Below, one piece after another: positions 410 through 54,132 of a DNA stretch of 64,000 bases; position 1 is the stretch's first letter, and every line of letters begins with the position of its first letter. The notes under the pieces were generated by a model. That model searched no databases. It saw nothing but the letters and a program-made list of their open reading frames with translations, and was not told where the DNA came from. Position numbers and translations under genes: made by a program. The stretch lies in assembly GCA_963795735.1 (NCBI GenBank), contig CAWCIU010000008.1, positions 1,751,836 through 1,815,835 of the forward strand, in the 5' to 3' direction. The DNA comes from an uncultured Acidobacteriota bacterium. Lineage in GTDB: Bacteria > Acidobacteriota > Thermoanaerobaculia > Multivoradales > UBA5704.

Positions 410-3400
410 ATGCCCCGTAATGCCTTGGCCCCCGTCGTCTTCCCTCCCGGCTCCACCCTCGGTCCCCTGCTCGAGGAGCTGCGCCTGGACGCCCGGCTCG
501 GCCCGCAGCTCCTCTACTCCACGCACCTGCCCGGCAGCGAGGCGCGGTACGGCGAGCTCGATCCGCCGCTCCCGGAGCCGCTCTCCCGCGCCTTGGGCCG
601 CGGGCTGGGCCATGGAAGCTCGCCGCGCCTGTGGACTCACCAGACGGAGGGGATCGCGGCCGTGCGGCGGGGAGAAAACGTGCTGGTCACCACCCCCACG
701 GCCTCCGGCAAGTCGCTGGTCTTCCAGGTCCCTCCCCTGGAGGAGGCGGTCCGCGGGGGACCGGGGCATGGCCTGTTCCTCTTCCCGCTCAAGGCGCTGG
801 GGCAGGACCAGCGGGGGAAGTTCCTCCGCCTGGCCGCGGAGGCGGGGATCCCGCCGGAGGCCGCCGGGTGCGAGATCTACGACGGCGACACCCCGGCCTC
901 GAAGCGCACCTCGATCCGCAAGAATTTTCCCCGGGTGGTGATCTCCAATCCGGACATGCTCCACCTGGGCGTCCTCGGCCACTGGACGGGGTGGGGGCCG
1001 TTCCTGGCCGACCTGCGCTGGGTGGTGCTCGACGAGCTCCACACCTACCGCGGGATCTTCGGCAGCCACTTCCACCACGTCCTCCAGCGCTTCTTCCGGC
1101 TCTGCCGCTCGGTGGGATCGGACCCGGTGCTGATCGCCTCCTCGGCCACCGCGGCCAACGCCGGGGAGTTCGCCGAGACCCTCACCGGGCGCAAGTTCCA
1201 CTGGATCTCCCAGTCGGGCGCCCCGCGCGAGGACCGCCACCTGCTGCTCTTCCAGCCGGAGGCGAGCCCGTACACCACCGCGCTGCAGCTCTTCGTGCGC
1301 TTCATCAACGCCGGGCTCAAAACGATCGTCTTCACCAAGGCCCGGCGGATCACCGAGCTGCTCTACTCCTGGCTGCGGCGGCAGGAGCCGGCCCTCGCCG
1401 CGCGGGTGGCGAGCTATCGCGCCGGCTTCCTCGCCGAGGAGCGGCGGCGGATCGAGGCCGCCCTCTTCGAGGGGAAGCTCGACGGCGTCATCTCCACCTC
1501 GGCCCTGGAGATGGGGATCGACGTCGGCGGCCTCGACGCCTGCATCCTGGTGGGCTACCCGGGGAGCATGATGGCCACCTGGCAGCGCTCGGGCCGGGTG
1601 GGGCGGGCGGGCCGCGAGTCGATCACCGCCATGGTGGCGATGCCCGACGCCCTCGACCAGTACTTCCTCGATCATCCCGGGCAGTTCCTCGAGCGCCCCT
1701 GCGAGCGGCTGATCGTCGATCCGGTCAACGATCCGGTGTCGCGGGCGCACCTGGTCTGCGCCGCCTCCGAGATGCCGCTCTGCGGCGACGACCGCGCCTA
1801 CCTGGCGCCGCACCAGGCCCGGGTGGAGAAGCTGCTGCGCCAGGGGCACCTGCTCGCCGCCGCCGAGGGGGACGAGATCTTCTCCCTGCGCCGCCGGCCG
1901 CAGCGCCACGTCAACTTGCGGGGGACGGGGGAGACCTTCGCCATCCTCGCCGGCGGCCGGACGATCGGCACGGTGGACGGCGTGCGGGTGCTCCACGAGT
2001 GCCACCCCGGGGCGGTCTACCTCCACGCCGGGCGGCAGTTCCTGGTCGAGGCGCTGGAGCGCGAGGAGCGGCGGGTGCTGGCCGCGGCGGCGGATCTCGA
2101 CTATTTCACCACCCCGCTGACCGAGAAGGAGACCGAGATCCTGGAGGTGCTGGAGGAGAGGAGCGAGGGGCCGCTCCAGGCCTGGCTGGGCCGCCTCAAG
2201 GTCACCGAAAGGGTGGTCGGCTTCGAGCGCAAGCGCATCCACGGTCAGGAGGTGATCGACCAGACGCCGCTCGACCTGCCGCCGGTCGAGTTCGAGACGG
2301 TGGGCCTCTGGTGGGCGGCGCCGCGGGCGGCGGAGGAGACCCTGCGCCGCCGGGGGGAGCACTTCCTGGGCTCCCTCCACGCCTCGGAGCACGCCGGCAT
2401 CTCGCTCTTCCCCATCCTGGCCCTCTGCGACCGCGGCGACATCGGCGGCATCTCCTACCCCCTCCATCCGCAGCTCGGCACCGGCGCCGTCTTCATCTAC
2501 GACGGCCATCCCGGAGGGGTGGGGATCGCCGCCCGCGGCTTCGAGGACCTCGCCGACCTGCTGGGGCGGATCGAGGCGCTGATCGCCGGCTGCCCCTGCG
2601 AGACCGGCTGCCCCTCCTGCGTGCAGTCCCCCAAGTGCGGCAACGGCAACCGGCCGCTCGACAAGCCGGGCGCGGCCCGGGTGCTGCGGCTGCTGCTCGG
2701 GCGGGAGGAGCCGGCGGTGGCGTGGGGGGAGGCGGTGCGGGTGAGTCTGGTGGTGGCGGAGGAGGCGGAGCCTCTCCCGGACCCTCACCCCCTGGCCCCC
2801 TCTCCCGTCCCCTCCCACCCTCCCTCGCCGGGAGAGGGGGAAACGGAAGGCTCTCTCGCAGTCGAGAATCTCCCCGGCCAGCGCCACGCCAGCCTGCGGA
2901 GCGCCCCTGCCACCTCGTTCGAGCCCCTCCAGATCGGGTCGGCTCTCCTGCCGTCGTCTCCATTCCCCCTCGCCCGGGGAGGGAGGGCGGGAGGGGACGG
3001 GAGAGGGGGTCAGGGGGTGAGGGTCCGGGAGGGAGAGCCGCGCACGATCCTCTTCGACCTCGAGACCCTGCGCTCCGCCGCCGACGTGGGGGGCTGGCAC
3101 AAGGCCCACCGCATGGGGATCGCCGTCGGGGTGGTCTGCCATCTGGAGGAGGGGCGCTTCGAGGTATATCCCGAGCTCCGGGTGCGCGACCTGGTGGAGG
3201 CCCTGCGCGGCGCCTCCCTGGTGATCGGCTACAACATCAAGCGCTTCGACTACCTGGTCCTCTCCGGCTACACGGGGGAGGACTTCTCGCGCACCCTGCC
3301 GACGCTCGACCTTCTGGAAGACGTCGCCTCCCGCCTGGGCTTCCGGGTGGGCATGGGCCACCTCGCCCAGGAGACGCTGGGGATCGGGAAGTCCGCCGAC

Positions 3401-3574
3401 GGCCTCCAGTCCCTCGAATGGGTCCGCCAGGGGCGGCTCGACCTGGTGGAGGCGTACTGCCGCAAGGACGTCGAGATCCTGCGCGACCTCTATCTGCACG
3501 GCCGGCGCGAGGGGCATCTCTTCTACCGGGACCGCAACCGGGACGTGCGGCTGAAGCTAGGCGTGGAGTGGTAG
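410..3574 (+). CDS. DEXH-box helicase with DUF1998/MZB zinc-binding domain (MrfA/YprA-like) fused to a C-terminal DEDD 3'-5' exonuclease domain (MrfB-like)
   Basis: Walker A TPTASGKSL, DEXH motif VLDELHTYRG, helicase C-domain. A 4-Cys cluster CPCETGCPSCVQSPKCGNG matches DUF1998. After a Pro/Gly-rich linker, the exonuclease motifs are FDLETL (Exo I), GYNIKRFDY (Exo II) and YCRKDVEIL (Exo III). Confidence 0.8.
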   Translation: MPRNALAPVVFPPGSTLGPLLEELRLDARLGPQLLYSTHLPGSEARYGELDPPLPEPLSRALGRGLGHGSSPRLWTHQTEGIAAVRRGENVLVTTPTASGKSLVFQVPPLEEAVRGGPGHGLFLFPLKALGQDQRGKFLRLAAEAGIPPEAAGCEIYDGDTPASKRTSIRKNFPRVVISNPDMLHLGVLGHWTGWGPFLADLRWVVLDELHTYRGIFGSHFHHVLQRFFRLCRSVGSDPVLIASSATAANAGEFAETLTGRKFHWISQSGAPREDRHLLLFQPEASPYTTALQLFVRFINAGLKTIVFTKARRITELLYSWLRRQEPALAARVASYRAGFLAEERRRIEAALFEGKLDGVISTSALEMGIDVGGLDACILVGYPGSMMATWQRSGRVGRAGRESITAMVAMPDALDQYFLDHPGQFLERPCERLIVDPVNDPVSRAHLVCAASEMPLCGDDRAYLAPHQARVEKLLRQGHLLAAAEGDEIFSLRRRPQRHVNLRGTGETFAILAGGRTIGTVDGVRVLHECHPGAVYLHAGRQFLVEALEREERRVLAAAADLDYFTTPLTEKETEILEVLEERSEGPLQAWLGRLKVTERVVGFERKRIHGQEVIDQTPLDLPPVEFETVGLWWAAPRAAEETLRRRGEHFLGSLHASEHAGISLFPILALCDRGDIGGISYPLHPQLGTGAVFIYDGHPGGVGIAARGFEDLADLLGRIEALIAGCPCETGCPSCVQSPKCGNGNRPLDKPGAARVLRLLLGREEPAVAWGEAVRVSLVVAEEAEPLPDPHPLAPSPVPSHPPSPGEGETEGSLAVENLPGQRHASLRSAPATSFEPLQIGSALLPSSPFPLARGGRAGGDGRGGQGVRVREGEPRTILFDLETLRSAADVGGWHKAHRMGIAVGVVCHLEEGRFEVYPELRVRDLVEALRGASLVIGYNIKRFDYLVLSGYTGEDFSRTLPTLDLLEDVASRLGFRVGMGHLAQETLGIGKSADGLQSLEWVRQGRLDLVEAYCRKDVEILRDLYLHGRREGHLFYRDRNRDVRLKLGVEW
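2782..3024. repeat. In-frame inverted pair of MITE/RPE-like repeat units inside the helicase ORF (units ~2782-2848 and ~2961-3024)
   Basis: The units match the dispersed family (ccctcacc...ctctcccgtcccctccc...gccgggagagggg and its reverse complement gggagggcgggaggggacgggagagg...ggtgaggg). They translate to the low-complexity linker PLPDPHPLAPSPVPSHPPSPGEGE...PLARGGRAGGDGRGGQG. Confidence 0.7.
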
Positions 3575-4156: not shown

Positions 4157-6232
4157 ATGCGGAGCCCCCGCCCGTCCCTCGTTTCCGCGATTTCCGTGAT
4201 CCTCCTCGGCCTGTCCCTGGCCGCCTGCCAGACGGCGCCGCCGAAGCCTCCGGCTTCACCGGCCTCGCCGGTATCGCGCGCCGCCGCCGGGCCGGGGGAG
4301 ATCCGCTACGGCTTTCTCTTCTCCGGCAATCCGGCGGGCTCCGCCTCCTCCCGCGTCGAGCCGGACGGCACCCGGGTGGAGACCTTTGAGTTCAACGATC
4401 GCGGGCGGGGCTCCAACACCACCAGCCGCTACCGGCTCGACGACAGGGGGCTGCCGGCGTCCGTCAAGACGACCGGCGTCGACTACTGGAAGACCCCGGT
4501 TTCGGAGCGGTTCGAGCGGACGGGTAGCCATGCCTCCTGGAAGAGCGCGGCGGAGAAGGGGGAGCGCGACGTCCGCGAGCCGGCCTTCTTCCTCAGCCTG
4601 AACGGTCCCCCCCAGGAGAGCGCGCTGCTAGCCAAGGCGCTGCTCGCGGCGCCGGGCCACCGCCTCCCGCTCCTGCCGACCGGGGAGGCCCGGCTCGAGG
4701 AGGTCACCTCGCTGCCGGTCCAGGCCGCCGGGCGCTCCCAGACCGTCCACCTCTACTCGCTCGCCGGCCTCGGCTTCACCCCCGGCTATCTCTGGCTCGA
4801 CGAGAGCCGGGATCTCTTCGCCAGCGTCAGCGGCTGGGGAGCCCTCTTCCGCGAGGGCTGGGTGGACGCCGTCCCGCAGCTCACCCACGCCCAGGATACG
4901 GCCGAGAAGGCGCGGTTCAAGGAGGCCGCCGCCCGGCTCGCCCATCACCCCCAGGGGGGCGGGCTCGCCATCCGTCACGCCCGGCTCTTCGATCCGGCGA
5001 CCGGGGCGTACCGGCCGGACACCACCGTGCTCGTTGCCGGCAACCGCATCCAGGCCGTCGGCCCGGACGCCGAGGTGACCGTGCCCCCCGGCGTCGAGGT
5101 GGTGGACGCCCGCGGCAAGGCCCTTCTGCCGGGCCTGTGGGACATGCACGTCCACCTCGGCGAGGAGCAGGGCCTCTTCAACCTCGCCTCCGGCGTGACC
5201 AGCGTGCGCGATCTCGCCAACGACGTCGACCAGCTCATCGACATGCGCCGGCGCTGGGATTCGGGCGAGGGGATCGGCCCCCGCGTGCTGATGGCCGGCT
5301 TCCTCGACGGCCCCGGCCCCTACGCGGGTCCCACCAAGGCGCTGGTCTCCACCGAGGCGCAGGCTCTGGAGTGGGTGGACCGCTACGCCAAGCTCGGCTA
5401 CGTGCAGATCAAGCTCTACAGCTCGCTCGATCCCAAGCTGGTGCCGCCAATCGTCAAGCGCGCCCACGAGCTGGGGCTGCGGGTCTCCGGCCACATCCCC
5501 AACGGGATGAGCGCCGAGCAGGCGGTGCGCGCGGGGTACGACGAGATCCAGCACGTGAACTTCCTGGTCCTCAACTTCCTCGACCCGAAGATCGACACCC
5601 GCACCCCGGCCCGCTTCTCCGAGGTGGCCAGGCACGCCGCCGAGCTGGACCTCCACTCCGAGCGGGTGAAGGATTTCATCGCCCTGCTCAAGGCGCGCGG
5701 CACCGTTTCCGATCCCACCCTCAACGCCTTCGAGGGGATGTTCAAGGCCCAACCCGGCGAGGTGGACCCCAGCCTCGCCGCGGTGGCGGACCGCCTGCCC
5801 CCCCAGGTGCAGCGCGGCCTCTACAATGCCGGCCTCAACCCGCCGGCCGACCAGGTGCAGCGCTACCGCGACTCCTACCGCGCGATGCAGAACCTGGTGA
5901 AGTCCCTCTACGACGCCGGGGTGACGATCGTCGCCGGCACCGATGCCATGGCGGGCTTCACCCTCCACCGCGAGCTGGAGCTCTACGTGGATTCGGGGAT
6001 TCCCGCCCCCGAGGCGCTGCGCATCGCCACCCTGGGCGCGGCGCGGGTCATGAAGCGGGACCGGGACCTCGGCTCGGTCGCCCCGGGCAAGCTGGCCGAC
6101 CTGATCCTGGTGGACGGCGATCCCGCGGCGCGCATCTCGGACATCCGCCGCGTGGTCCTCACCGTCAAGGACGGCGTGGTCTACGACCCCGCGGCCCTCT
6201 GGCGCGAGGTCGGGGTCAAACCGGTGGAATGA
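4157..6232 (+). CDS. amidohydrolase family protein (secreted/lipoprotein, N-terminal extra domain)
   Basis: Signal/lipobox LGLSLAAC. Metal-binding motif PGLWDMHVHL. The C-terminus AGTDA...LILVDGDP is typical of the amidohydrolase superfamily. Confidence 0.8.
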   Translation: MRSPRPSLVSAISVILLGLSLAACQTAPPKPPASPASPVSRAAAGPGEIRYGFLFSGNPAGSASSRVEPDGTRVETFEFNDRGRGSNTTSRYRLDDRGLPASVKTTGVDYWKTPVSERFERTGSHASWKSAAEKGERDVREPAFFLSLNGPPQESALLAKALLAAPGHRLPLLPTGEARLEEVTSLPVQAAGRSQTVHLYSLAGLGFTPGYLWLDESRDLFASVSGWGALFREGWVDAVPQLTHAQDTAEKARFKEAAARLAHHPQGGGLAIRHARLFDPATGAYRPDTTVLVAGNRIQAVGPDAEVTVPPGVEVVDARGKALLPGLWDMHVHLGEEQGLFNLASGVTSVRDLANDVDQLIDMRRRWDSGEGIGPRVLMAGFLDGPGPYAGPTKALVSTEAQALEWVDRYAKLGYVQIKLYSSLDPKLVPPIVKRAHELGLRVSGHIPNGMSAEQAVRAGYDEIQHVNFLVLNFLDPKIDTRTPARFSEVARHAAELDLHSERVKDFIALLKARGTVSDPTLNAFEGMFKAQPGEVDPSLAAVADRLPPQVQRGLYNAGLNPPADQVQRYRDSYRAMQNLVKSLYDAGVTIVAGTDAMAGFTLHRELELYVDSGIPAPEALRIATLGAARVMKRDRDLGSVAPGKLADLILVDGDPAARISDIRRVVLTVKDGVVYDPAALWREVGVKPVE

Positions 6233-22736: not shown

Positions 22737-22877
22737 ATCGGCCCATCTTCTCTCCAGAGGAACAGGGAAGGCGCCTCGCCGCCCGGGATTGAAATCCCGG
22801 GCGATGGGCGGCGACGGTTCGGTTCCTGGCCGCCCCGCGTCGCGATATGCTCCCCGGCAACCTCGCGGAGCCCGTCC

Positions 22878-23495
22878 ATGCGCCCCTTCTTCGCCCCCTA
22901 CATCCAGAGCTTCCTGCCGCTCTTCGTGGCGATCAACCCGATGGGGATCATCCCCATCTACCTCAGCGTCACCGAGAACCTCAGCGCGGCCGACCGCCGG
23001 CGGCTGACCCTGCAGGCGATGATCACCGCCGTCGGGCTCTCGGTGCTGATCCTCTTCGCGGGGCAGCTGATCTTTTCGCTCCTCGGCATCACCGTCAACG
23101 ACCTGCGGGTGGGGGGCGGCCTGATCCTGCTGGTGCTCAGCATCTCCAACCTGATCTTCGGCGACTACCGCCGGCGCGATCCGACCGCGGGGGAGGAAGG
23201 GGAGGACCTGGCCTCGGTCGGCATCGTCCCCCTCGGCATCCCGCTGATCGTCGGCCCCGCCGCGATCACCTCGATCCTGGTCTCGCGGGAGGCCTACGGC
23301 TATCTCCCCACCCTGGCCTCGCTGATCGTCAACATGGGGCTGGTGTTCCTGACCCTGGTGGCGAGCCCCTGGGTCGGCCGCGTCACCGGCAGCGCCGGCT
23401 CGCGGGCGATCGCCAAGGTGGCGAGCCTCTTCCTGGCCGCGATCTCGGTCGCGATGATCCGCGCGGGGATCATGGGGATGATCCAGGGGAGGTAG
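22878..23495 (+). CDS. MarC-family (UPF0056) membrane protein
   Basis: LPLFVAINPMGIIPIYLSVT, typical of the MarC family. Six TM helices. Confidence 0.8.
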   Translation: MRPFFAPYIQSFLPLFVAINPMGIIPIYLSVTENLSAADRRRLTLQAMITAVGLSVLILFAGQLIFSLLGITVNDLRVGGGLILLVLSISNLIFGDYRRRDPTAGEEGEDLASVGIVPLGIPLIVGPAAITSILVSREAYGYLPTLASLIVNMGLVFLTLVASPWVGRVTGSAGSRAIAKVASLFLAAISVAMIRAGIMGMIQGR

Positions 23496-23496
23496 G

Positions 23497-23676
23497 CCCT
23501 CACCGGGAGAGGGGAAACGAACCGGCGGAGCCCGTAGGGTGCGCTGTGCGCACCTTTGAGGCCGTCCATGGTGCGCGCAGCGCACCCTACATCGAACATG
23601 GAGCGCAGCGTCCCCCTCCTCTCCCGGTGCGGGAGGGCGGGAGGGGACGGGAGAGGAGGGCCGGGGAGGTGAGGGC
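23497..23676. repeat. MITE-like element: truncated forward unit (23497-23520) and reverse unit (~23611-23676) bracketing a second copy of the 62-bp palindrome (~23526-23590)
   Basis: Sequence identity of the palindrome to 21857-21918, with one U-G-compatible change. The flanks match the dispersed ccctcacc...gggagagg family. Confidence 0.6.
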
Positions 23677-24258
23677 CTACTTCGAAGCCGTCTGCGTCTG
23701 CGCCCGCATCGCGAACGGCTGGCCGCCGTGCAGGTAGCGGTAGGGGTTGACCGCCTCGCCGGAGGGGGCGTAGATGCCGTAGTGCAGGTGGGGAGAGGAG
23801 ACGGCCGCGTTGCCCGAGTTGCCCACGTAGCCGATGATCTCGCCGGCCTCCACCCAGTCGCCGACCGCCTGCGGACCGTAGTCCTCGAGGTGGGCGTAGT
23901 AGAGACGGTAGCCGCCCGGGCCGGTGATCGTCACCACCTGGCCGCCCAGCCCCCGCATCCCCTTGTTCTCGACGAACCCCTCGGTGGCGCTGCGGATCGG
24001 CGTGTTGCGCGGGGCGAAGATGTCGATCCCCTTGTGGTGCCGCACGCCGCCGTCCCGCGCGAAGCCCCAGGTGTTCTGGAGCTGGGAGGAGGTCACGCCG
24101 TCCACCGGGATCGGCAGCGTGCCCGGCAGCCCCTGCTGGAGCAGGGTGGTGTAGCGCGTGTTGTAGCGCACGGCCGCTTCGCGGCAGCCCCCGAGCGAGA
24201 GCGAGAAGAGAACGAGAAGGGCGACGAGACCGAGGGACTGGCGACGAACCATCTCCAC
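23677..24258 (-). CDS. M23-family metallopeptidase (peptidoglycan DD-endopeptidase-like)
   Basis: HKGIDIFAP...HLHYGIYAP motifs. Signal peptide. Confidence 0.8.
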   Translation of the reverse strand: MEMVRRQSLGLVALLVLFSLSLGGCREAAVRYNTRYTTLLQQGLPGTLPIPVDGVTSSQLQNTWGFARDGGVRHHKGIDIFAPRNTPIRSATEGFVENKGMRGLGGQVVTITGPGGYRLYYAHLEDYGPQAVGDWVEAGEIIGYVGNSGNAAVSSPHLHYGIYAPSGEAVNPYRYLHGGQPFAMRAQTQTASK

Positions 24259-24453
24259 CTCCTGGGGAATGCGGGCTCCTCGGGAACCCGTTCCGTTTTG
24301 CAGCAGACGATCAGGGACGGCGAGCCTCAGGCCTCAGGGCCGGGAATCCAGCCGCGGGGGTCCAGCTCAGCCAAAAAAACGTTCCGCCATCATTCGTGGG
24401 AAGATCCTAACCCAAAACGGGGCGAATTGTAGCGAAACGAGAAATATGGTGAA

Positions 24454-31179: not shown

Positions 31180-31288
31180 GGGGCGGTTATCCTATCGTGC
31201 TGGTCCCGCGAAGCTCCCGATCCCGGAGATCGGACGTCGTTTCCGATCCTGGAGATCCGGTCTTCGGAACGGTGCCGGCGCCGCCGGG

Positions 31289-31355
31289 CCCCTCACCTCC
31301 CCGGCCCTCCTCTCCCACCTCCCCCCCTTCCGCCGGGAGAGGAGGGAGTGGTTAG
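31289..31355 (+). repeat. MITE/RPE-like repeat unit, forward copy (ccctcacctccccggccctcctctcccacctcccccccttccgccgggagaggagggagtggttag)
   Basis: Seen directly. Contains the internal hairpin ctcctctccc/gggagaggag. Confidence 0.8.
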
Positions 31356-31358
31356 TCT

Positions 31359-31748
31359 CTAGGAGGAATCGCGGTCGTGGTAAAGGCAGCCCAGGGCGTC
31401 GAGGAGGGCCGCGAGGTCATTCTGGACCTGGTCGTTGGTGAAGCGAAGGACCCGGTAGCCGAGAGCCTCGAGGTTCGCATCCCGATTGACGTCATGCCTG
31501 ATCTGGCGTTCTTCTGTATGAATGCCGCCGTCGATCTCCAGGACAAGCCTCATCTCGTGGCAGAGGAAGTCGGCGACGTAGGGTCCCACGGGAGCCTGCC
31601 GGCGGAATTTCAGGCCGAGGAACCGGCGGTCCCGCAGGTGGTCCCAAAGCATCTCCTCGGCCTGGGTGGAGGCGCGCCGGAGCCCCTTCGCGCGAAGCAC
31701 GGCACCAGGATTGGAAACCCGCACCGCAAAAGTATCCCACAAGCGCAA
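31359..31748 (-). CDS. DUF559 endonuclease-domain protein (Vsr-like fold), cargo of a MITE-like inverted-repeat element
   Basis: MLWDHLRDRRFLGLKFRRQAPVGPYVADFLCHEMRLVLEIDGGIH...LEALGYRVLRFTNDQV matches the DUF559 family. The gene ends 4 bp from repeat A and starts (TTG/GTG) ~7 bp from repeat B. Confidence 0.8.
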   Translation of the reverse strand: MRLWDTFAVRVSNPGAVLRAKGLRRASTQAEEMLWDHLRDRRFLGLKFRRQAPVGPYVADFLCHEMRLVLEIDGGIHTEERQIRHDVNRDANLEALGYRVLRFTNDQVQNDLAALLDALGCLYHDRDSS

Positions 31749-31754
31749 TACCCA

Positions 31755-31821
31755 CTAACCACTCCCTCCTCTCCCGGCGGAAGGGGGGGAGGTGGGAGAG
31801 GAGGGCCGGGGAGGTGAGGGG
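31755..31821 (-). repeat. MITE/RPE-like repeat unit, reverse copy, inverted partner of 31289-31355
   Basis: Reverse complement of the forward unit. Confidence 0.8.
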
Positions 31822-32039
31822 CCCGGCGGCACCGGCGTCGCTCCGGCTTCCTCCCATCTCGGGATCGGAGAAGACCGGCCGGAGAAGACGCGGTCGGAGA
31901 AGACGTGGCCGAGAACACCCGGCCGGAGAAGACCCGGCCAGAGAACCCGGCCGGAGAACACCTGGGAGGTTTCGCGAGCAAAGGCTGATCCTGCCGGCGT
32001 CAGCCCTGCCGGAACGGGGACCGTGCCGGCCGCTCCGGG

Positions 32040-32106
32040 CCCCTCACTCCCCCAGCCCCTCTCTCCCACCTCCCCCCCTTCCGCCGGGAGAGAGGGGAGT
32101 GGTTAG
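32040..32106 (+). repeat. MITE/RPE-like repeat unit, solo forward copy
   Basis: ccctcactcccccagcccctctctcccacctccccccttccgccgggagagaggggagtggttag, just downstream of the ABC permease gene. Confidence 0.75.
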
Positions 32107-35778: not shown

Positions 35779-35848
35779 CGGGGGTGGGGCGGCGTTGGGA
35801 CCGGCCGGGCGGGATCGTAGCCAAACGGCGGCGGGGGGGCAAGGGCGG

Positions 35849-36016
35849 CCCTCATCACCCCGGCCCTCTTCTCCCACCTCCCCCCCTTCCGCCGGGAGAA
35901 GAGGGAGTGGTTAGCTCAAGAAAAGAAAAAGAAAGAAGAAGCGGTTGGTTTTAGCCCTCTCTCTCCCGGCGGTCGGGGGGGAGGCTGGGAGAGAGAGGGT
36001 TGGGAGAGTGAGGGCC
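35849..36016. repeat. Empty MITE/RPE-like element: forward unit 35849-35914 and reverse unit ~35955-36016 separated by ~40 bp A-rich spacer
   Basis: Both units match the family consensus. The spacer is aaaagaaaaagaaagaagaagcggttggttttag. Confidence 0.75.
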
Positions 36017-36114
36017 GCCCCGGAGGGGCGCCGGCGACGTTGCCTGTAAGACGTTACCAGTAAGACGTGCCTGTACGACGTGCCTGGAAGAGGCCTGCCT
36101 TCCCAGGCCCCCCC

Positions 36115-39527: not shown

Positions 39528-41597
39528 TTGCACATCTTCATGACTTCACGCCAGTCAACATCTAGTCTCCAGAGCCGAGAGATACTGCTTCTTGAGGATA
39601 ACTCCGGGGCGTCGGAGAGGCGACATCAGGTCGGCGTCTCTCGTCAAATCGTTCACTCTACCATTACCATCAGGGTGCACCGAATAAGCGGTACATCTTC
39701 GCAACTAGCTGCGAGCAGGACCTACAAAGTCGGAACCTTATCCGGCGAGCGCAATGGGCGCATCCAACTCGCTATGCGTCTCCTTGATCGGGCTAAGCCT
39801 AAGAAGGGCTGCGTCGTCGCAGCTGGGACATCCTATGGCTCTGCGGCGACCTTTTTGAGGGCGCTGTCCAATATTGGTCTGTCCTTCGTTGTTCAGGTGA
39901 GGCCCAGCACATTGCTTGACGTGCTCGGAACGAAGGCTAAACTAAGCACGGCCGGGGAGCTACTGGCTGGAGGCCAATGGGAGGCGGTGACGTTGCCACT
40001 GCTGGACGGGACAAAAGTGGACTATGTAGCTGCTAAGCTGGCAGATGTCGACCTAACCATAGGTCCCGCCAAGCTCTTTGCCGCTCGTGTCGGTGGTGTA
40101 GAGGGCGCTCAGCGGAGTACGATCATCGGCCTCTCTTCCTTTGACGCGAGCATAAGTGAGCTTGTACAGATCATCGGCTACACACGATGGATAAGGCCGA
40201 TCTCCCGGAGACAGGACAGAGCGGCACGGGGGGTAGCCGGACGTGCGGAGCCAGAAGGTAATGCAGCAACTCTGAGAGCCCGCGCCAATATCACATCAGC
40301 TCGCCAGCAGGATGATCGTGCCAGAGAGGGGAATATGTACGTCCTCGGGTACTCCCCAAGAGGAGTTCTGCAATCCTGTGGGTCAACTCTTAACGTCGCA
40401 GAGTTGTTTGCGGGCGCCGGTGGTATGGGGCTTGGCTTTCTCTTGGCAACCGGAGGAGAGGGACGCTACCGTCTCGTATATTCCGGAGAAGTGAATCCAA
40501 TCTACGTCCAGACGCTTCGAACGAACCATGAAGCATTACCGGGCGTCGTGGGCGGAGCCGGTGAAGCGCTTATTCCCGAGTATACGGAGGCGGCGGATCT
40601 GCGACGAGAGGAAACCCTGGCTAGCGTCAAAGAGGTCGGGTGCCAAAAGGGTGGCATTCACGTGCTCATTGGTGGCCCCCCATGCCAAGGATTTTCCATG
40701 GCTAATCGCAATTCTTGGCACGGTCGCAACCCGCACAATCGCCTCGTGGATGTATTTTTTAAATACGTCGAAGAGCTCCGCCCAAAAGTCTTCCTAATGG
40801 AGAACGTGCAGGGGATCCTCTGGACTCCTAAGGGAGGTAGGCCGGTCTCGGTTGTTGACGTCATAGAACGTCGTATGCGAGCGGCAGGCTACATAGTATT
40901 TCCAAAGCTACTCGACGCAGTATGGTATGGCGTGCCTCAGCATAGGACTCGCTTCTTTCTAATGGGACTCCACCGTGATCTTGGATATCGCTCCGACAGC
41001 TTTGGAGAATGGGGGCCGTTTCCTGTTCCGACGCATGGCGGAGAGTCCTCGCCGTGGGTAACGACAAGGGAAGCACTTGCCGATCTTCCCCGCATAGGCA
41101 ATGGTGCGTCGGTGGAGGATCTCGCCTATATTGACCCTTCGCCTGCTGCGCTAAAACAGAATCCATTCCTCAATTACATCAGGGATGGGGCTGAGCGTGG
41201 TTTGGTCTTTGACCACGTAACCTCTAGGCATGCTGAATATGTAATCGACCGCTATCGTAAAATACCGCCTGGCGGTAATTGGGAAAGCATCCGCGAAGAA
41301 CTATCTAACTACGCCGATGTTTCGCGCACCCACAGCAATATTTACCGTCGCCTGCGATGGGACGAACCATCTATTACGATTGGACATTATCGCAAGAGTA
41401 TGCTCGTGCACCCTAGTCAGCATCGAGGTCTCTCCCTTCGCGAGGCGGCGCGGCTGCAATCGTTTCCCGATTGGTTTCACTTCGCGGGAACAGTAAGCGG
41501 GCGTGATGGAGGAATTGTTCATAAACAACAGCAACTCGCTAATGCTGTCTGCCCGCTGGTAACGAAAGCTGTTGCAGAGTTCATCCTGCATCTATGA
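39528..41597 (+). CDS. DNA (cytosine-5)-methyltransferase with ~280-aa N-terminal extension of unknown function; DruM-like
   Basis: Motif I AELFAGAGGMGLGF, motif IV PPCQGFSMANR, ENV motif FLMENVQG, later QSFPDWFHF. Lower GC than flanking DNA. Confidence 0.8.
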   Translation: MHIFMTSRQSTSSLQSREILLLEDNSGASERRHQVGVSRQIVHSTITIRVHRISGTSSQLAASRTYKVGTLSGERNGRIQLAMRLLDRAKPKKGCVVAAGTSYGSAATFLRALSNIGLSFVVQVRPSTLLDVLGTKAKLSTAGELLAGGQWEAVTLPLLDGTKVDYVAAKLADVDLTIGPAKLFAARVGGVEGAQRSTIIGLSSFDASISELVQIIGYTRWIRPISRRQDRAARGVAGRAEPEGNAATLRARANITSARQQDDRAREGNMYVLGYSPRGVLQSCGSTLNVAELFAGAGGMGLGFLLATGGEGRYRLVYSGEVNPIYVQTLRTNHEALPGVVGGAGEALIPEYTEAADLRREETLASVKEVGCQKGGIHVLIGGPPCQGFSMANRNSWHGRNPHNRLVDVFFKYVEELRPKVFLMENVQGILWTPKGGRPVSVVDVIERRMRAAGYIVFPKLLDAVWYGVPQHRTRFFLMGLHRDLGYRSDSFGEWGPFPVPTHGGESSPWVTTREALADLPRIGNGASVEDLAYIDPSPAALKQNPFLNYIRDGAERGLVFDHVTSRHAEYVIDRYRKIPPGGNWESIREELSNYADVSRTHSNIYRRLRWDEPSITIGHYRKSMLVHPSQHRGLSLREAARLQSFPDWFHFAGTVSGRDGGIVHKQQQLANAVCPLVTKAVAEFILHL

Positions 41598-41598
41598 C

Positions 41599-43596
41599 AT
41601 GAGCTCCTTCGAAAGGTATACCCTCTGGAACTATATGTTGGCGGAGCAATGCCTGCTAACGGGTTCTAATCAAGGCGCTGTACTGCTCACGGTAACGCCG
41701 CGGATCCTCGCTGCTGCGTTGGATGAGGCTAAAGAAGGATTGCAATCACCTGAGGAGGCTGAGGCGGACTTCGTTACAGCTGTAACATTTGTTTATAAGG
41801 AACATGTGCTGCGAAGGCCAGAAAGGTTGCGAGCTTTAAAGTCGTCGGATAAGACAGAGGTTCCCTTAAGTGTCGGGTTCCTCGCTCTTTCCGTTCTCGC
41901 TGCCTACCGTATGCGTACTGATGGTGAGCGCACAGGACGGGCCTATTATGCGAGGCTTGGCGAGATGGTCGGCTGTGGGCTAGTTGGTAATTTTCCCCTA
42001 GGGTTTGATCCAGATGCATTCGTGGAATTATGGGATGAGCTGGCGCAATGGCTCGAAACTCAGTACGGCCGACGGCTTGTCCTTCCTGTGGCTGGGGGTG
42101 TGCAAAAGTTCGTAGCCTACCCTCTTGCACATGTTCCATTGCGACGAGTGGACATTGATCGACTACCGCAGTTCTTTGATTCCTACGGTTACGAGCCAGG
42201 GATGCGCGCTCCGTTGGATTCGCTTGCCTACGATCTCTATAAAGGAGCCGGTCCTTGGCGACATCTAACGAGAGTAGGTCAACGTGCTCTGGAAGATCCG
42301 GGCCGTCGTCCTTTCGTGATTCGGCAAGTCGCCCATGAACTCGAGCACTGGGATGGCTGTCGAACTGACTCATACGGCACGCGGATAGCCACCATCGCAT
42401 TGTGGATGGACATCCGTCGACGGCGGGTTCAACTCTCCTTGCTCGCCAGACGGCCCCAGGGCTTTCCTGAAGAAATTGAGAATGAAGATCTTGTTTTTGT
42501 TTCAAGCCAAGAGGGATGGTACGAGCCAATCCTGCTCGGGCCCGATGACGGTGCTCTTCTCAGTGAGGGTCTTCGAATAGACGCCTGTGCATCCGGCAGT
42601 CGCTGTCTTCTCCAGCTTCGTGGATTCACTGTCGTTCCGTTAACGCCCTCTGAAGAGTATGCGGGTCTTGTTTCGGATTCCGTCCTGCGCGCGGGCACGC
42701 GATGTGCGGTGCTCTGTGCGGAATCGATGATTGAGGATGTTTCTCGATACCTTGAGTTGCTGAACAACGGGCCCGTTTATCCTCGCCGCGATGAGAACCT
42801 ACCTAAAGGCTGGTGCCTGTTCACCGATGTCGAGCTGTCTTCCGATGCCGCTCCGCCGGTTGGCCTCGAGCGTCTCCGGGCCGAGGCCAGTATTGCTCTG
42901 GTCCCTGTGGGAGGGCTGCGCCTCGGGCGTCGTTGGACTTGGCTGGAAGGTGCATCTGCGTGCCTCAGGATCGTCGGCGCTCGTCAAGGGCTAGAAGTAC
43001 GCGTCGATGGGCAAGAGGCGAAACTGGACAGCGAAGGACATCTGCCTGCCGCTCTCTTGAGGGCCGAAGGAACGCATGTTGTTGAGGTCGGTAACCGGTT
43101 GAGACAACTGATCGCTGTACTACCTGGCGCCGTGAATCCGGAGTGCAGGTCTTGGGAATGCAACGAGCCAATTCTCAGCCGGATTCCCGTAGCAGTACCT
43201 GAGGGACATTGGGCTGTTATTGGGTCCGTACCTGGCGAACTCGCAACCGTATTTGCGTCTTCCGAAGGTGCGCTCATCCGGCCAGACTTCTTTGCCCGGT
43301 GGGCAGTGAAGATAGGTACTCGTCGTAGTGCAACCGCGCTTCATCTCCATGACGTGGGTGCCTCTTTAATGGCCGAGTGGGATAGGGATGACGTAACAAG
43401 GATTCAAGCCCCGTGTTTACGCGCGGGGTTTACTTCGGCTCAGTCGTGGGCGGAAATAATCTATCAGGCCGGAATTCGCAGACCGCATCTCGTGTGTACA
43501 TTAAAGTGCCAAGTCCAGGAGCTTGCAGCTGAATGGCGACGCTTAATGGAGAAGGCACGCTCTGTGAAGCGGGAGATAAAGAGGGGGCGCCGGTGA
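41599..43596 (+). CDS. hypothetical protein (665 aa), DruF-like position in Druantia type II-like operon
   Basis: The ATG lies 2 nt after the MTase stop. No recognisable motifs. Confidence 0.5.
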   Translation: MSSFERYTLWNYMLAEQCLLTGSNQGAVLLTVTPRILAAALDEAKEGLQSPEEAEADFVTAVTFVYKEHVLRRPERLRALKSSDKTEVPLSVGFLALSVLAAYRMRTDGERTGRAYYARLGEMVGCGLVGNFPLGFDPDAFVELWDELAQWLETQYGRRLVLPVAGGVQKFVAYPLAHVPLRRVDIDRLPQFFDSYGYEPGMRAPLDSLAYDLYKGAGPWRHLTRVGQRALEDPGRRPFVIRQVAHELEHWDGCRTDSYGTRIATIALWMDIRRRRVQLSLLARRPQGFPEEIENEDLVFVSSQEGWYEPILLGPDDGALLSEGLRIDACASGSRCLLQLRGFTVVPLTPSEEYAGLVSDSVLRAGTRCAVLCAESMIEDVSRYLELLNNGPVYPRRDENLPKGWCLFTDVELSSDAAPPVGLERLRAEASIALVPVGGLRLGRRWTWLEGASACLRIVGARQGLEVRVDGQEAKLDSEGHLPAALLRAEGTHVVEVGNRLRQLIAVLPGAVNPECRSWECNEPILSRIPVAVPEGHWAVIGSVPGELATVFASSEGALIRPDFFARWAVKIGTRRSATALHLHDVGASLMAEWDRDDVTRIQAPCLRAGFTSAQSWAEIIYQAGIRRPHLVCTLKCQVQELAAEWRRLMEKARSVKREIKRGRR

Positions 43597-44489
43597 AGTG
43601 GGACTTGCTGCTTGAGTGGATGACACACATGGGCTCGGGCCACTGGGGTGCATTCCGCGAGGCCGTGGCGGAGCTTGCCGACCCCGATGATCCTGAGATG
43701 CCGGTGCTGGCCCAGAAGCTTCGTATTGCTCTTTCGGACCTTGGCCACGTGGATTTTTTCGTTGATGGGCCCCGACGCTGGCAGGTACTGCGGCCGGCCT
43801 TAGTTGGCTTGGCTGGTAGCAACGCGCACCTGTTCGTAGGCGGTCGTACCCGGCATCTTGCCGAGAAGTTGACATCGAGCCTGCTGGAAGGTGGAGCGTC
43901 GGTATCCATCACAAAAATCAATCCCGGGCTTGCACGTATCTGCCTGGAGGGCCCACAAGAGATTCTGCGCGCGACCGCCAAAGACCTCGGGCTTGAATAT
44001 GTGCCTGTAGCCTCAGCTCTGCTTGCTTCCCGACTTCTGCCGCTGCGGCATACGATCGAGTGGGCTCCTGCTCGTCCAGAGCCGATCAACTGGGCCGTAC
44101 GATCGTGGTCGTTTGAGAGCAAAGCGTGGATTCATGGCAGGTTCGCGCGTACTGCACTAGAGTACACTAACCGGCATGGGGCAAGTAGATACATGATCGA
44201 TCTTGGCCATGCCGGCCTTCGGGACTTCAACAAGCGCGTATCCATTTACGGGGCGGCTTTTTTGAAGGGTAGGCGGATTATCCGCTACTGCTTCGAGAGA
44301 GAACGCCTTCTGGTACCCCGTTGGGCTCCACTCCCGGAGCCTTATTCCCGTGTGGCGTGCTTGGCTGGCGGGCAACTCGCCACCGTTCAGGAAGATGATC
44401 TTGTCTTTGAATCCGTCACCCCCAATATAGCGTCGATGCTCTTGATTGCACTAGGACAGGGGTATCCAAAGCACGGAGATGTTTTATGA
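43593..44489 (+). CDS. hypothetical protein (~298 aa), DruG-like position
   Basis: GTG start overlapping the upstream stop (GTGA) with RBS agaggggg. The stop overlaps the next ATG (ATGA). Confidence 0.5.
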   Translation: MKWDLLLEWMTHMGSGHWGAFREAVAELADPDDPEMPVLAQKLRIALSDLGHVDFFVDGPRRWQVLRPALVGLAGSNAHLFVGGRTRHLAEKLTSSLLEGGASVSITKINPGLARICLEGPQEILRATAKDLGLEYVPVASALLASRLLPLRHTIEWAPARPEPINWAVRSWSFESKAWIHGRFARTALEYTNRHGASRYMIDLGHAGLRDFNKRVSIYGAAFLKGRRIIRYCFERERLLVPRWAPLPEPYSRVACLAGGQLATVQEDDLVFESVTPNIASMLLIALGQGYPKHGDVL

Positions 44490-47400
44490 ATGATCCATTT
44501 TTTACATTCCACCAGCTTCGGGAGACCTACCTTCGGTATCTGGACAGCCCTTTTCGCCTCAGGTATAAGGCACTGATGGAGGAGCGTCGCACTCTCCTTG
44601 ATCGGGATCGACAGCTCTACCGAGAACCTCTCTTTGAGCCAGTCGTGCCGTATGAGTCATCGAAATTGACCATGCGAGGTGCGTGTTCGCATCTCGGGGT
44701 TTCATCTGATGTCGCAGAGTATCTGGATACCGGTGGCCTCTTTCCGTCGAGTCGCGAACTCTTCCAGCATCAATTGGATGCTTGGGAATCTTCGCGCAAG
44801 GGTGATGCCGTGATCGTGACGACGGGTACAGGGTCCGGGAAGACGGAGTGCTATCTGCTCCCAGTGTTCGCCTACCTCGTTGAGGAATCGACAAGATGGG
44901 GTGCGCCATCGGCACGCTCGCCTCACTATCTCTGGTGGTCTCACCCACGGCAGCAACGTATCCCGCAGCGTGCCCACGACACTGGTCGAGCTAAGGCTCT
45001 TCGCGCACTTTTTTTGTACCCGCTTAATGCGCTTATCGAGGATCAGCTAGGGCGGATACGCACGGCTTGTGATGGTCCCAATGGACGGCGGTGGCTGACG
45101 AACTGCCGGGCCGGAAACCGTTTTTGGTTCGGGCGCTATACGGGTGCCACGCCTGTTTCGGGGCCCCAAACCAACGCTAAGCGACAAGAGTTGAAGCGGC
45201 GCCTGCAAGACATAGAAGATGAGTGGGATCGTGCCCGACTTTCCGCTGCCCGATCCGGTAACGATGACATTCTCTCCTATTTCCAAGACCCTGATGGAGC
45301 GGAAATGTGGTCTCGCTGGGATATGCAGGAGGATCCGCCGGACATTCTCATCACTAACTATAGCATGCTTAACATTATGTTAATGAGGAGCCTGGAGAGT
45401 GACGTATTCGACCAGACGAAGGCGTGGCTCGCGCAGGATCGCGACAGGAATGTGTTTCACCTCGTTGTGGATGAGCTCCATACCTATCGAGGCACACCCG
45501 GAACTGAAGTAGGCTATCTGCTTCGCGCATTGCTGCACCGCCTCGGCCTAACTCCGGACTCGCCGCAGCTTCGAATTATTGCGACAAGTGCTTCGATTGA
45601 TGCAAATGATCCAGGAAGTACCGAATATTTGGAGGAATTTTTTGGGAGAGACCCATTGACCTTCAAGATCATCGAAGGGAAGCGGACTGCCTTCTCAAGC
45701 GGAAGCGGCACGCGAAGTGCTCAGCCCTTCGTTGTCTTCGGACAGGGGCTCGAGGAAGGAACTCTCGCTACTGCCGTCGCACGCCTCGCGGCTGATACAG
45801 GTGTTATACCGCGAGAGTCGAGTCCCGAGCGTCGGCTGGCCGAGGTACTCAGCACCACCGGTGTTATGGAGCTGGTGCGTTGCGAAGGAGAGCAGGGACC
45901 ATTTACGAGCACGCGCCTTGGAGAGTCCCTCTTCGGGACAGATCCCGATGCAGGGGTAGCTACCCATGCCATAATTAGGGGGCTGATCCTCGCGCGGGAG
46001 GTACGGGGTGGGTTAGAAGTCGCTCCTCTTCCCCTCAGAGTACATTACTTTTTTCATAATGCTGGGCGGCTTTGGGTCTGCGTTAATCCACAGTGCTCTG
46101 GACGTACAGGGACCACGTCACCGGGTGCCGAGGTGCCTCCGGTTGGTAGACTCTATGTTGAGCCGCGGCCGCGCTGCGAAAACTGTAATGCCCGCGTACT
46201 CGAGCTTCTATATTGTCAGCCGTGTGGAGAGGTTTTTGTTGGTGGCTATCGTGCCGAAGATTGCAACATCAATAATGCATGGTTTCTATCGCCTGACTTT
46301 CCCGACCTGGAGCATGTCCCAGACCGGTCGACCTCACCAAAGAGGATTCACATTGAGTACCTTGTTTTCTGGCCCGCAAACGGGCGACCATTGGTGCGCA
46401 GTAATCATGCGGGCCCATCTTGGGGGTGGCAGCAAGACGGGCAGGCAGGCTATCAGTGGCGCCCGGCCTCGCTCGACATGGTGGAAGGCCGCCTCTCTCT
46501 AAGCCCGCCCCGGCGCTCCACTAGCCCATCCGAGATAGCAGGTTATGCCTTCATTGCTCCTTTGGCTCATGCCGATGCTTTTCCTGCAAAGTGTCCCCAC
46601 TGTGCGGCAAACTGGGGCAGGCGCCTTGGTGTTAAGTCTCCGATCCGAGATCTCGGATCTGGTTTTCAACGCATCATGCAGATTCTCGGCGACGCACTCG
46701 TACGTGAGATTCCTGAAGGACCGGGCCGGAAGCTGGTTCTTTTCTCAGATTCCCGACTTGATGCAGCGAAGCTCTCAACGGGGATCAAGCTCGCACATTA
46801 CAGGGATACTCTCCGCCAGATCGCATTTGAGACTCTTGGTACGGCGGGCACTGCGGCAAAGCGACTTCATCAGGAGAATCAGGAGATATCTCAGCAGGCG
46901 ATTGAGCTGTACGCCTTGCTACAGAAGCGGGAGGCGGAAGGCCTCTCCGACCGAGAGAATGCACGCCGGAAAGAGCTGATGAGCGCCCTTCCTGGAAGCA
47001 TCGTTGGGGATCTTACAAAGTACGCAGTGACAGGTGGAACTCCTCCCAATGTTCTCGTGCCTCCGGTGCCTCCTGGGGCTCTCATATTCATGCCCTTCCG
47101 ACAGCTCATCGATCTTGTACGTACGCAATTGTTCTCCAAGGGTATAAACCCGGGCGGCCCGTTGCCATCAGTCGCGACATACCAGCCTCAGCGAAGTGGA
47201 CCAAAAGCCTTGTGGACAAATCTTCTCGACTGGTCGACAGCTCAGCCAAACTATCAGGCCGGTCTGCAGCCTCTGGAGCGGAACCTTCAAGCGAGCATCG
47301 AGGTCTCTCTTCGCGAGAACGTTATATCCAGCGTTCTCTTTGCATCAGCGGCAAGAGACTTCGAGTCTCTGGGGCTCGGCTACTTGTGGACCAGCAACGT

Positions 47401-52568: not shown

Positions 52569-53549
<981 letters not shown>

Positions 53550-53641
53550 GGCGGGGATCGTAGCAGGGGAGGGTGGGGGCGGGCGACCGATACCCCGATG
53601 CAGGACGCTTCATGATCCCGGACGGCTCCGTGCCGCCGCGG

Positions 53642-53796
53642 CCCTCATCACCCCGGCCCTCTTCTCCCAGCCTCCCCCCCTTCCGCCGGGAGAAGGGGGA
53701 GTGGTTAGTCTGAAAAAAGACCAGAGCTTTTTGAGCCCCCTCTCTCCCGGCGGCGGGGGGGAGGTGGGAGAGAGGGGGTTGGGGGAGTGAGGGGCC
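53642..53796. repeat. Empty MITE/RPE-like element: forward unit 53642-53708, reverse unit ~53736-53796, 27-bp spacer
   Basis: ccctcatcaccccggccctcttctcccagcctcccccccttccgccgggagaagggggagtggttag ... ccccctctctcccggcggcggggggggaggtgggagagagggggttgggggagtgaggggcc. Confidence 0.75.
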
Positions 53797-54132
53797 TCAC
53801 GCCGTCAGGTCGTCGACCGCCGCCTCGGGGGCGTTCTTCTTGACCGATTCGAGCCCCTTCTCCATGGATTCGGGGGAGGAGTAGGTCTCGCTCTGGCCGA
53901 TCACCTGGCCGTTGTAGGCCTTGAGAACGAAGTAGGCTTCGCCGTTCTTGGCCGTCTTGCGCTCGTAGCGCTCGGCGATCGGGGCGCTGCGCTTGACCGA
54001 TTCGATGCCGCCCAGGGCGCCGCGCTTCTCGGTATAGAGCTCGCTCGCCAGGATCACCTCTCCATTGTCCGCCTTGAGATGGAACAGGTACTGCTTGTCG
54101 GTGGACATCTTCAGCTCGAACTTTCCAGCCAT
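53797..54132 (-). CDS. YegP/DUF1508 (UPF0339) family protein
   Basis: Two tandem ~50-aa repeats: KFELKMSTDKQYLFHLKADNGEVILASELYTEKRGALGGIESVK and AYFVLKAYNGQVIGQSETYSSPESMEKGLESVK. Confidence 0.75.
   Translation of the reverse strand: MAGKFELKMSTDKQYLFHLKADNGEVILASELYTEKRGALGGIESVKRSAPIAERYERKTAKNGEAYFVLKAYNGQVIGQSETYSSPESMEKGLESVKKNAPEAAVDDLTA

Follow-up and report, generated by a model that had tools for sequence, protein, structure and literature searches.

How does a short, dispersed DNA repeat come to be translated in the middle of a conserved repair enzyme, and did its arrival there join the two halves of that enzyme? The question is raised by a 64-kb stretch (64,000 nucleotides, 67% G+C; referred to below as the window) of contig CAWCIU010000008.1 from an uncultured Acidobacteriota bacterium of the class Thermoanaerobaculia. 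The window encodes a fused MrfA/YprA-type helicase and 3'-5' exonuclease in the open reading frame (ORF) at positions 410-3574, and the linker between the two enzymatic modules contains two inverted copies, or arms, of a repeat that we call family A. A preliminary description of this DNA proposed that the arms form the linker, that they represent the insertion of one unit resembling a MITE (a miniature transposable element with inverted repeats), and that this insertion may have created or stabilised the fusion. The best overall explanation is probably a different one, namely an old fusion whose tolerant, disordered tether has received two passenger insertions.

The host gene has G+C fractions of 0.74, 0.49 and 0.94 at the three codon positions (GC3 0.94), and its product matches the Pfam families DEAD, Helicase_C, WHD_HRQ1 (the HRQ1-type winged helix) and MZB, all above threshold; with the NCBIfam model TIGR03817 it reaches 674.6 bits, short of the curated cutoff of 874.1. 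The features expected of MrfA/YprA are present, namely a superfamily 2 core of DEAD and Helicase_C domains, a winged helix and a C-terminal four-cysteine MZB (DUF1998) domain, and Cys728/730/734/737/743 of the latter are invariant among 31 orthologues. For the C-terminal domain, neither a single sequence nor a profile found a significant match in the PDB, and PF13482 (RNase_H_2) gave only a weak, sub-threshold hit on the last 175 residues, although the family is recorded for three homologues; the domain was identified by fold search alone. The top Foldseek matches in the PDB are chains of family-B DNA polymerases (E = 8e-6, probability 1.0, TM 0.64), and the match is assigned to the polymerase exonuclease domain because this is the sole plausible counterpart for a 181-residue query. 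Residues D883, E885, D947, Y1016 and D1020 are invariant in the same 31 orthologues, which indicates a DEDDy exonuclease. The fifth catalytic residue is tyrosine (Y1016-x3-D1020), and the protein ends 34 residues further on with no tetratricopeptide repeat (TPR) domain.

The gene is a known type of helicase-exonuclease fusion. In Bacillus subtilis, MrfA and MrfB (YprA and YprB) are a helicase and an exonuclease that act as a pair in mitomycin repair, and fusions of the two have been reported (bioRxiv 10.1101/426304; 10.1101/2025.09.15.676423); MrfB is a DEDDh exonuclease with a TPR domain, structurally closest to DEDDy and PolB-type domains. The helicase half shares with MrfA the DEAD, Helicase_C, winged-helix and four-cysteine MZB domains, and its partner, as in the Bacillus pair, is a DEDD-type 3'-5' exonuclease close in structure to PolB-type exonuclease domains. 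In contrast to MrfB, this partner keeps the invariant acidic DEDD residues but has tyrosine in place of the DEDDh histidine and lacks the TPR domain. Judged from its sequence, it would work like MrfB, as a DEDDy variant without TPR. Unlike the Bacillus pair, the two halves are tethered by a disordered linker of 62-201 aa, depending on the species.

In the full-length AlphaFold2 model of the window protein, residues 782-875 have pLDDT values below 50 and no secondary structure, and since residues 789-811 and 852-874 fall inside this segment, both arms lie in the predicted disordered tether. The arms were detected by repeat search as an inverted repeat of 69 nt, 94% complementary and 120 nt apart. 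The preliminary description had placed them within 8 nt of these boundaries (at about 2782-2848 and 2961-3024, some 110 bp apart), and it was right about their position between the DUF1998 (MZB) and exonuclease domains, about their inverted orientation as members of a dispersed repeat family and about their in-frame, low-complexity translation. Both are read through in the frame of the gene, the left arm as LPDPHPLAPSPVPSHPPSPGEGE and the right arm, which presents its G-rich strand in the mRNA, as FPLARGGRAGGDGRGGQGVRVRE; these peptides are rich in Pro, Gly, Ser and Arg. The arms do not form the linker as a whole, supplying 46 of its 115 residues, and the remainder, including the 120-nt interior, is ancestral. 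The left arm folds into a hairpin of its own (stem halves 2796-2807 and 2829-2840, local energy -28.6 kcal/mol), and the two arms together can pair in the mRNA as a near-perfect stem of about 80 bp, the predicted RNA fold of 2760-3045 reaching -222.7 kcal/mol (z = -11.5 against shuffled sequences). A 21-mer derived from the arm occurs three times in the window at up to three mismatches, as against 0.05 expected; the arm pair is not a product of chance.

If the arms had made the fusion, relatives without them should help to reveal it. The 120 best protein homologues, annotated as belonging to Thermoanaerobaculia or Acidobacteria metagenome-assembled genomes (MAGs), comprise 119 full-length fusions (65-93% identity, 994-1140 aa) and one truncated entry. 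A locus scan with one genome per species yielded 80 loci down to 56% identity, 78 of them with both anchors that flank the linker, and in all 78 the helicase, linker and exonuclease are contiguous. Linker length varies from 186 to 603 nt and is a multiple of three in 77 cases, one of which has an in-frame stop. A family-A copy is present in 22 linkers and absent from the other 56; in a tree of the flanking domains, the linkers that bear family A are limited to a single subclade, and the deep branches (L050-L082, 56-66% identity) have none. Here and below, L-numbers denote orthologous or other fetched loci, WIN the window copy of the gene, and P0085 the protein entry of L083.

By this comparison, the fusion is class-wide and much older than the repeats. 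The proposal that a repeat insertion created or stabilised it, perhaps through loss of a stop codon or of the gap between two genes, has in its favour the location of the repeats, exactly at the junction of the two enzymatic modules, and the fact that Bacillus has mrfA and mrfB as separate genes, but every orthologue examined is fused, including the 56 linkers without a family-A copy and all of the deep branches. The preliminary description had suggested looking in element-free relatives for a stop codon and a separate exonuclease gene, and had named a fusion of the same kind with comparable linker length as the outcome that would speak against it; the arm-less orthologues are indeed equally fused, with linkers of comparable length. 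The proposal is already contradicted within the sampled clade, and we regard it as extremely improbable. The only split or disrupted versions are disruptions of the fused gene or assembly errors and not ancestral split states.

Three such loci were observed. In L083 (P0085), a single extra G within 5290-5420, just upstream of a repetitive extragenic palindrome (REP) of the GTAG type, splits the gene into overlapping helicase and exonuclease ORFs; the linker of L032 contains a frameshift within the fused gene; and in L030 a stop codon lies in frame where the linker begins. These interruptions may be real splits or pseudogenes that arose through repeat instability, or else assembly errors in G/C-rich repeats, which may be the case for L083, a long-read MAG.

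Family A itself is a genuine, homogeneous, high-copy element. An nhmmer family profile together with BLAST identified ten copies in the window, including both arms; all eight copies outside the linker sit between coding-like ORFs and appear to be intergenic. A further candidate at 52855-52927 was dropped as a chance match within coding sequence. The unit of about 65 nt consists of a tail of about 20 nt (..GAACCCTCACCCCCCGG) and a hairpin (12-bp G+C stem, 21-nt loop); the consensus reads CCCGAACCCTCACCCCCCGG, then the stem CCCCCTCTCCCG, the loop and the second stem half CGGGAGAGGGGG. Stem variants number at least five, each paired at 12 of 12 positions (CCCTCTTCTCCC/GGGAGAAGAGGG, CCCCTCTCTCCC/GGGAGAGAGGGG, CCCTCCTCTCCC/GGGAGAGGAGGG, CCCCCTCTCCC/GGGAGAGGGGG and others); because the stems differ and yet are all perfectly complementary, the hairpin structure is the conserved feature. 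The exact arm 21-mer GGGAGGGGACGGGAGAGGGGG was found in 106 stretches of public metagenome contigs. Among the 80 of these that were fetched, just two have the helicase gene as context, and the copies in the remaining, unrelated contexts are typically identical to the left arm of the window at 61-65 of 69 positions and have sharp ends. An Rfam scan of the whole window gave no family at the gathering score.

One intergenic site in the window resembles the linkers in its layout. In the repeat nest at 23497-23687, a GTAG-tagged REP doublet (GTAGGGTGCGC..., at about 23537-23590) stands between a truncated family-A copy (23497-23519) and a full one (23609-23687), the same nesting that is seen in orthologous helicase linkers.

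Did the two arms enter the gene together? The interior between them encodes ..PGQRHASLRSAPATSFEPLQIGSALL.., with the motif stretch ..PGQRHASLRSAPATSFEPLQ.., and the linker motif RHAHLR..EPIRAEP.LLQR that it carries is present in arm-less orthologues as well. At both the protein and the DNA level, the interior aligns to the PG.RH.HLR......EPIRAEP.LLQR segment of the arm-less L003, L008, L009, L010 and L059. This homology indicates that the arms are two separate insertions flanking host sequence and not an element with terminal inverted repeats (TIRs) on either side of a cargo. A single MITE that transposed into the linker as one unit is accordingly a quite unlikely alternative, even though family A does show traits of this kind: it is short, non-coding, multi-copy and dispersed (about 65 nt, ten copies in 64 kb), and it often occurs in inverted pairs of constant order, 20-600 nt apart, that look like TIR-bounded units, some of them with a DUF559 gene as cargo. 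In L015, L037, L031 and L018, moreover, a compact pair that resembles a unit insertion lies wholly upstream of the conserved linker motif. Besides the host sequence at 2843-2962, the existence of solo copies speaks against such a unit, both in the window (23609-23687 and 32031-32105) and in linkers with a left or a right arm alone. So do L012 and L013, where the compact pair found upstream of the motif is complete and L012 has an additional, separate right arm. Compact pairs and extra arms in various lineages show that the linker has been struck several times. No consistent target-site duplication could be defined in the filled/empty comparisons L002-L001 and WIN-L009 or in the flanks of 81 copies, and the outer boundary of the element occurs in a short or a long form. 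No transposase sharing family-A ends was found in the DNA examined; the sole bracketed gene encodes the DUF559 endonuclease, which is no known transposase.

The state of the arms among the closer relatives (Table 1) is one of gain and decay. L001, the closest relative (93% amino acid identity), has no left arm and only a remnant of the right, and the internal deletions in the right arms of L001 and L002 are both multiples of three and in frame. Where arms are intact, they are very similar to those of the window: the left arm is identical at 68 of 69 positions to those of L005 and L002, and the right arm at 65 of 67 and 67 of 69 positions to those of L005 and L006, respectively. The interior is only about 70% identical to L005 locally.

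Repeats of other kinds have also accumulated in this tether. Family A has a density of 1.17 per kb in linkers as against 0.0185 per kb elsewhere in the loci examined, figures that, like the match counts, are inflated by shared ancestry and come from a search database enriched for family A. A match to dispersed DNA (comparison set of 1.13 Mb with the helicase genes masked) was found for 36 of the 78 linkers and for one of 78 length-matched control windows in the helicase domain. In relatives, this tether also harbours at least four further families of nested repeats: the GTAG-tagged REP doublet GTAGGGGCGACCTGCGGTCGCCC in L001, L002 and L008, GTAGGGGCGGGGCTTGTCCCCGCCC in L003, and further palindromes in L036, L004 and L007. 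The reading frame in which the element is translated varies by lineage, giving PSP..GEGE or LTP..RERE peptides, a variability that speaks against selection acting on any one peptide. A tolerant sink, or hotspot, for repeats is the best description of the linker.

The contigs of four species-representative MAGs (L043, L044, L048 and L072) end inside the linker at or near repeats, as expected if repeats break short-read assemblies, and the annotated protein is truncated. By strict scoring, only 13 of 154 evaluable family-A copies are intragenic. Judged from translations alone, copies are read in frame in a few unrelated proteins, namely in an Lhr-like DEXH helicase, between motifs II and III (L091, 3406-3475), in a VWA/TPR BatB-like protein (L163, 882-949) and in membrane proteins (L150, 10243-10313; L133, 557-610).

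The history that probably accounts for these data starts with a class-wide fusion of an MrfA/YprA repair helicase to an MrfB-like DEDD exonuclease through a disordered tether whose length and sequence would be nearly free to vary. Two family-A copies, oppositely oriented, would have inserted there in separate events, one on each side of the conserved linker motif. Family A has stop codons in only one of its six frames, and the arms may persist because they are harmless, the element being stop-free in the other five frames and the tether presumably accepting any in-frame, low-complexity insert. The layout of the gene and its arms, their membership of family A, the age of the fusion, the excess of repeats in the linker and the decay of the arms are shown by the comparisons above; we infer that the arms are neutral and that survivorship is the reason for their in-frame state, selection sparing only those insertions that are in frame and free of stops. 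The arms would then be passenger DNA translated as extra disordered linker, neither the origin of the fusion nor a unit with a demonstrated function. They would be acquired, shortened by deletions of multiples of 3 nt and lost as species diverge, while the tether collects other repeat families too.

Several observations weigh against this history. A predicted mRNA stem of -222.7 kcal/mol would be unlikely to leave translation or the stability of the RNA unaffected. Between the window and L005, L006 and L002, the arms show 97-99% identity, as compared with 76-82% at third codon positions and about 70% in the middle of the linker; this divergence is slower than neutral and requires explanation. 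All inverted pairs seen have the C-rich arm first and the G-rich arm second (four in the window, nine in linkers and nine in metagenome loci), a uniform order that is unexpected from two fully independent random insertions. Finally, owing to shared ancestry, the enrichment of family A in linkers overstates the number of independent events.

Some of these observations would be explained if the inverted pair were a functional RNA or DNA structure, for instance one that RNase III cleaves, that affects stability or at which ribosomes pause between the enzymatic halves, with the arms kept by selection for pairing. The very stable fold fits this proposal, as do the near-invariance of the arms in the three species that have both of them, where the flanking linker and synonymous sites diverge, and the divergence of the unpaired right arm in L004 and L007 to 74-79%. 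In L006, the left arm carries two bases of the right-arm type that render the pairing perfect there; this two-base change is the only informative case for arm-arm covariation, as the orthologous arms offer almost no variation. But the closest relative lacks the left arm and most orthologues lack both, the solo arms of L032 and L036 are still 92-95% conserved, and Rfam gave no match. Moreover, intergenic copies of the same subfamily, present in dozens of unrelated metagenome contexts, match the arms as closely as orthologous arms match one another, which makes the conservation a property of the family and not of the linker locus; locus-specific constraint, first considered for the near-invariant arms, was dropped for this reason. 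A functional structure at this site is on balance unlikely. From the sequence comparison, we attribute the near-invariance of the arms to a family-level cause, be it a constrained hairpin, ectopic gene conversion between the numerous copies or recent re-insertion.

The preliminary description had likened the arms to the palindromic elements of Rickettsia, and the likeness holds. Rickettsia palindromic elements (RPEs) and the QMITEs of Coxiella are bacterial MITEs found in frame within genes (PMC10969869, PMC5896051, PMC3184786). Similarly, family A is short, high-copy, palindromic and mostly intergenic, sometimes lies within ORFs in frame and free of stops, and, as with RPEs, adds its peptide to a tolerant part of an otherwise conserved protein. 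RPEs are roughly 100-150 nt long, whereas family A has a shorter unit of about 65 nt and an unrelated sequence, and comes from Acidobacteriota of the class Thermoanaerobaculia. Its host site is a disordered inter-domain tether struck repeatedly by several repeat families across the class, and no transposase partner or target-site duplication has been identified for it. With this host and no Rfam match, family A is not a member of the RPE sequence families, and the resemblance is one of behaviour, not homology.

A second comparison is with REP/REPIN elements, which carry GTAG or CGTC tags and are associated with RAYT transposases (PMC3733652). Family A shares with them a conserved G+C-rich stem-loop with compensatory changes between subfamilies, a high copy number, a mostly extragenic location, frequent inverted doublets and the bracketing of a protein-coding gene. 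It differs in lacking a GTAG or CGTC tag, in its unit of about 65 nt as opposed to 20-40 nt for REPs, and in the bracketed gene, which encodes a DUF559 (Vsr-like PD-(D/E)xK) endonuclease and not a RAYT (IS200/IS605-like TnpA). True GTAG-tagged REP doublets form separate families, present in the linkers of L001, L002, L003 and L008 and at 23537-23590 of the window. A scan of the window confined to the ORFs near family-A copies gave only DUF559 and no RAYT.

The DUF559 ORF of the window (31359-31754, minus strand, 131 aa; PF04480, E = 2e-35) is bracketed by the inverted pair at 31278-31833, and all DUF559 ORFs in the first set of loci (the window, L095/L112 and L114/L125) are bracketed alike. 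Four further DUF559 homologues of Thermoanaerobaculia (L190-L193) lie within family-A clusters, which brings the total to seven independent loci. The bracketing arms are 94% complementary over 81 nt in L191 and 100% over 68 nt in L192, and more divergent in L190 (75% over 57 nt); in L193, family-A copies are found upstream, at the 3' end and downstream of the ORF. Outside the class, Methylocystis echinoides has a DUF559 gene with a 37-nt inverted repeat on its flanks that follows the same CCCTCTCCCGC..GCGGGAGAGGG style, and in Brevundimonas a repeat pair is present only upstream of the gene. No link was seen in one Phycisphaerae contig, which stops at the gene and is uninformative. A literature search found no paper describing an association of DUF559 genes with repeats. 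By analogy with REPs and RAYTs, family A and related repeats that share the CCCTCTCCC..GGGAGAGGG hairpin could conceivably be the cognate repeats of DUF559 endonuclease genes, with a small nuclease, in place of a tyrosine or HUH transposase, mobilising or maintaining a palindromic repeat family throughout the genome. This is a tentative idea that we consider possible but doubtful, and we put it forward as a hypothesis, not a result. If it holds, the helicase tether would be a preferred site of landing or retention, and the translated arms an evolutionary by-product.

Table 1. Features of the window and state of the linker arms in related loci (positions refer to the window).
Feature	Position or loci	Strand	Basis and remarks
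Gene for fused MrfA/YprA-type helicase and C-terminal 3'-5' exonuclease	410-3574	+	ORF and translation, 1054 aa
MZB (DUF1998) domain, zinc-binding, aa 660-738; final folded module of the helicase ahead of the linker	2387-2623	+	Pfam PF09369, E = 5e-19
Inter-domain linker, aa 765-879, 115 residues, predicted disordered	2702-3046	+	Anchors RVLRLLLG and ILFDLET
Left arm, family-A repeat, C-rich strand, in frame, aa 789-811	2774-2842	+	nhmmer 2771-2849, E = 5e-11
Ancestral host linker between the arms	2843-2962	+	DNA and protein alignment with arm-less L003, L008, L009, L010
Right arm, second family-A repeat, inverted, in frame, aa 852-874	2963-3031	-	nhmmer 3033-2958, E = 2e-8
C-terminal DEDDy 3'-5' exonuclease domain, aa 880-1054	3047-3571	+	AlphaFold2 pLDDT 92.9, Foldseek, invariant residues
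Family-A copy closest to the arms in the window (about 88%)	23609-23687	-	Between convergent ORFs 22737-23495 (+) and 23677-24333 (-)
Family-A inverted pair around DUF559 ORF (31359-31754, -)	31278-31354 / 31756-31833	+ / -	nhmmer; PF04480
Solo intergenic family-A copy	32031-32105	+	nhmmer, E = 6e-16
Intergenic family-A inverted pair, A-rich spacer	35842-35913 / 35950-36024	+ / -	nhmmer
Intergenic family-A inverted pair	53631-53707 / 53730-53805	+ / -	nhmmer
DruM-like C5 cytosine methylase	39528-41597	+	Druantia-type operon
DruF-like protein	41572-43596	+	Druantia-type operon
DruL-like protein	43533-44489	+	Druantia-type operon
DruE4-like helicase, 1844 aa	44486-50020	+	PADLOC 1803 bits
Left arm present	WIN, L005, L006, L002, L032; partial in L036		DNA alignment and tree
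Left arm absent	L001, L003, L004, L007, L008, L009		DNA alignment and tree
Right arm intact	WIN, L005, L006		DNA alignment and tree
Right arm with 18-nt internal deletion	L002		DNA alignment
Right arm with 39-nt internal deletion	L001		DNA alignment
Right arm diverged to 74-79%	L004, L007		DNA alignment
Right arm absent	L003, L008, L009, L032, L036		DNA alignment

Elsewhere in the window, an island of about 11 kb with low G+C content (39528-50020, plus strand; 53-58% as against the 67% background) contains a Druantia-type defence operon and was probably acquired horizontally. Its DruE protein shares the YprA family with the repair helicase of 410-3574.

The helicase-exonuclease gene of this bacterium adds a case from Acidobacteriota to a known phenomenon, the RPE-like translated repeat, in a known kind of fusion protein. 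The attractive idea that a repeat insertion made the gene fusion is corrected here by the orthologue test. Small palindromic repeats are translated within conserved proteins beyond the obligate intracellular bacteria in which they are best known, and an inter-domain disordered tether can be a recurrent safe harbour for several repeat families throughout a bacterial class. For genome annotation, it matters that such linkers break short-read assemblies, yield apparent frameshifts and split genes and inflate the "low-complexity" regions of proteins. If it proves general, the association with DUF559 would supply a large family of unknown function with a role open to testing and explain a very common type of G+C-rich repeat.

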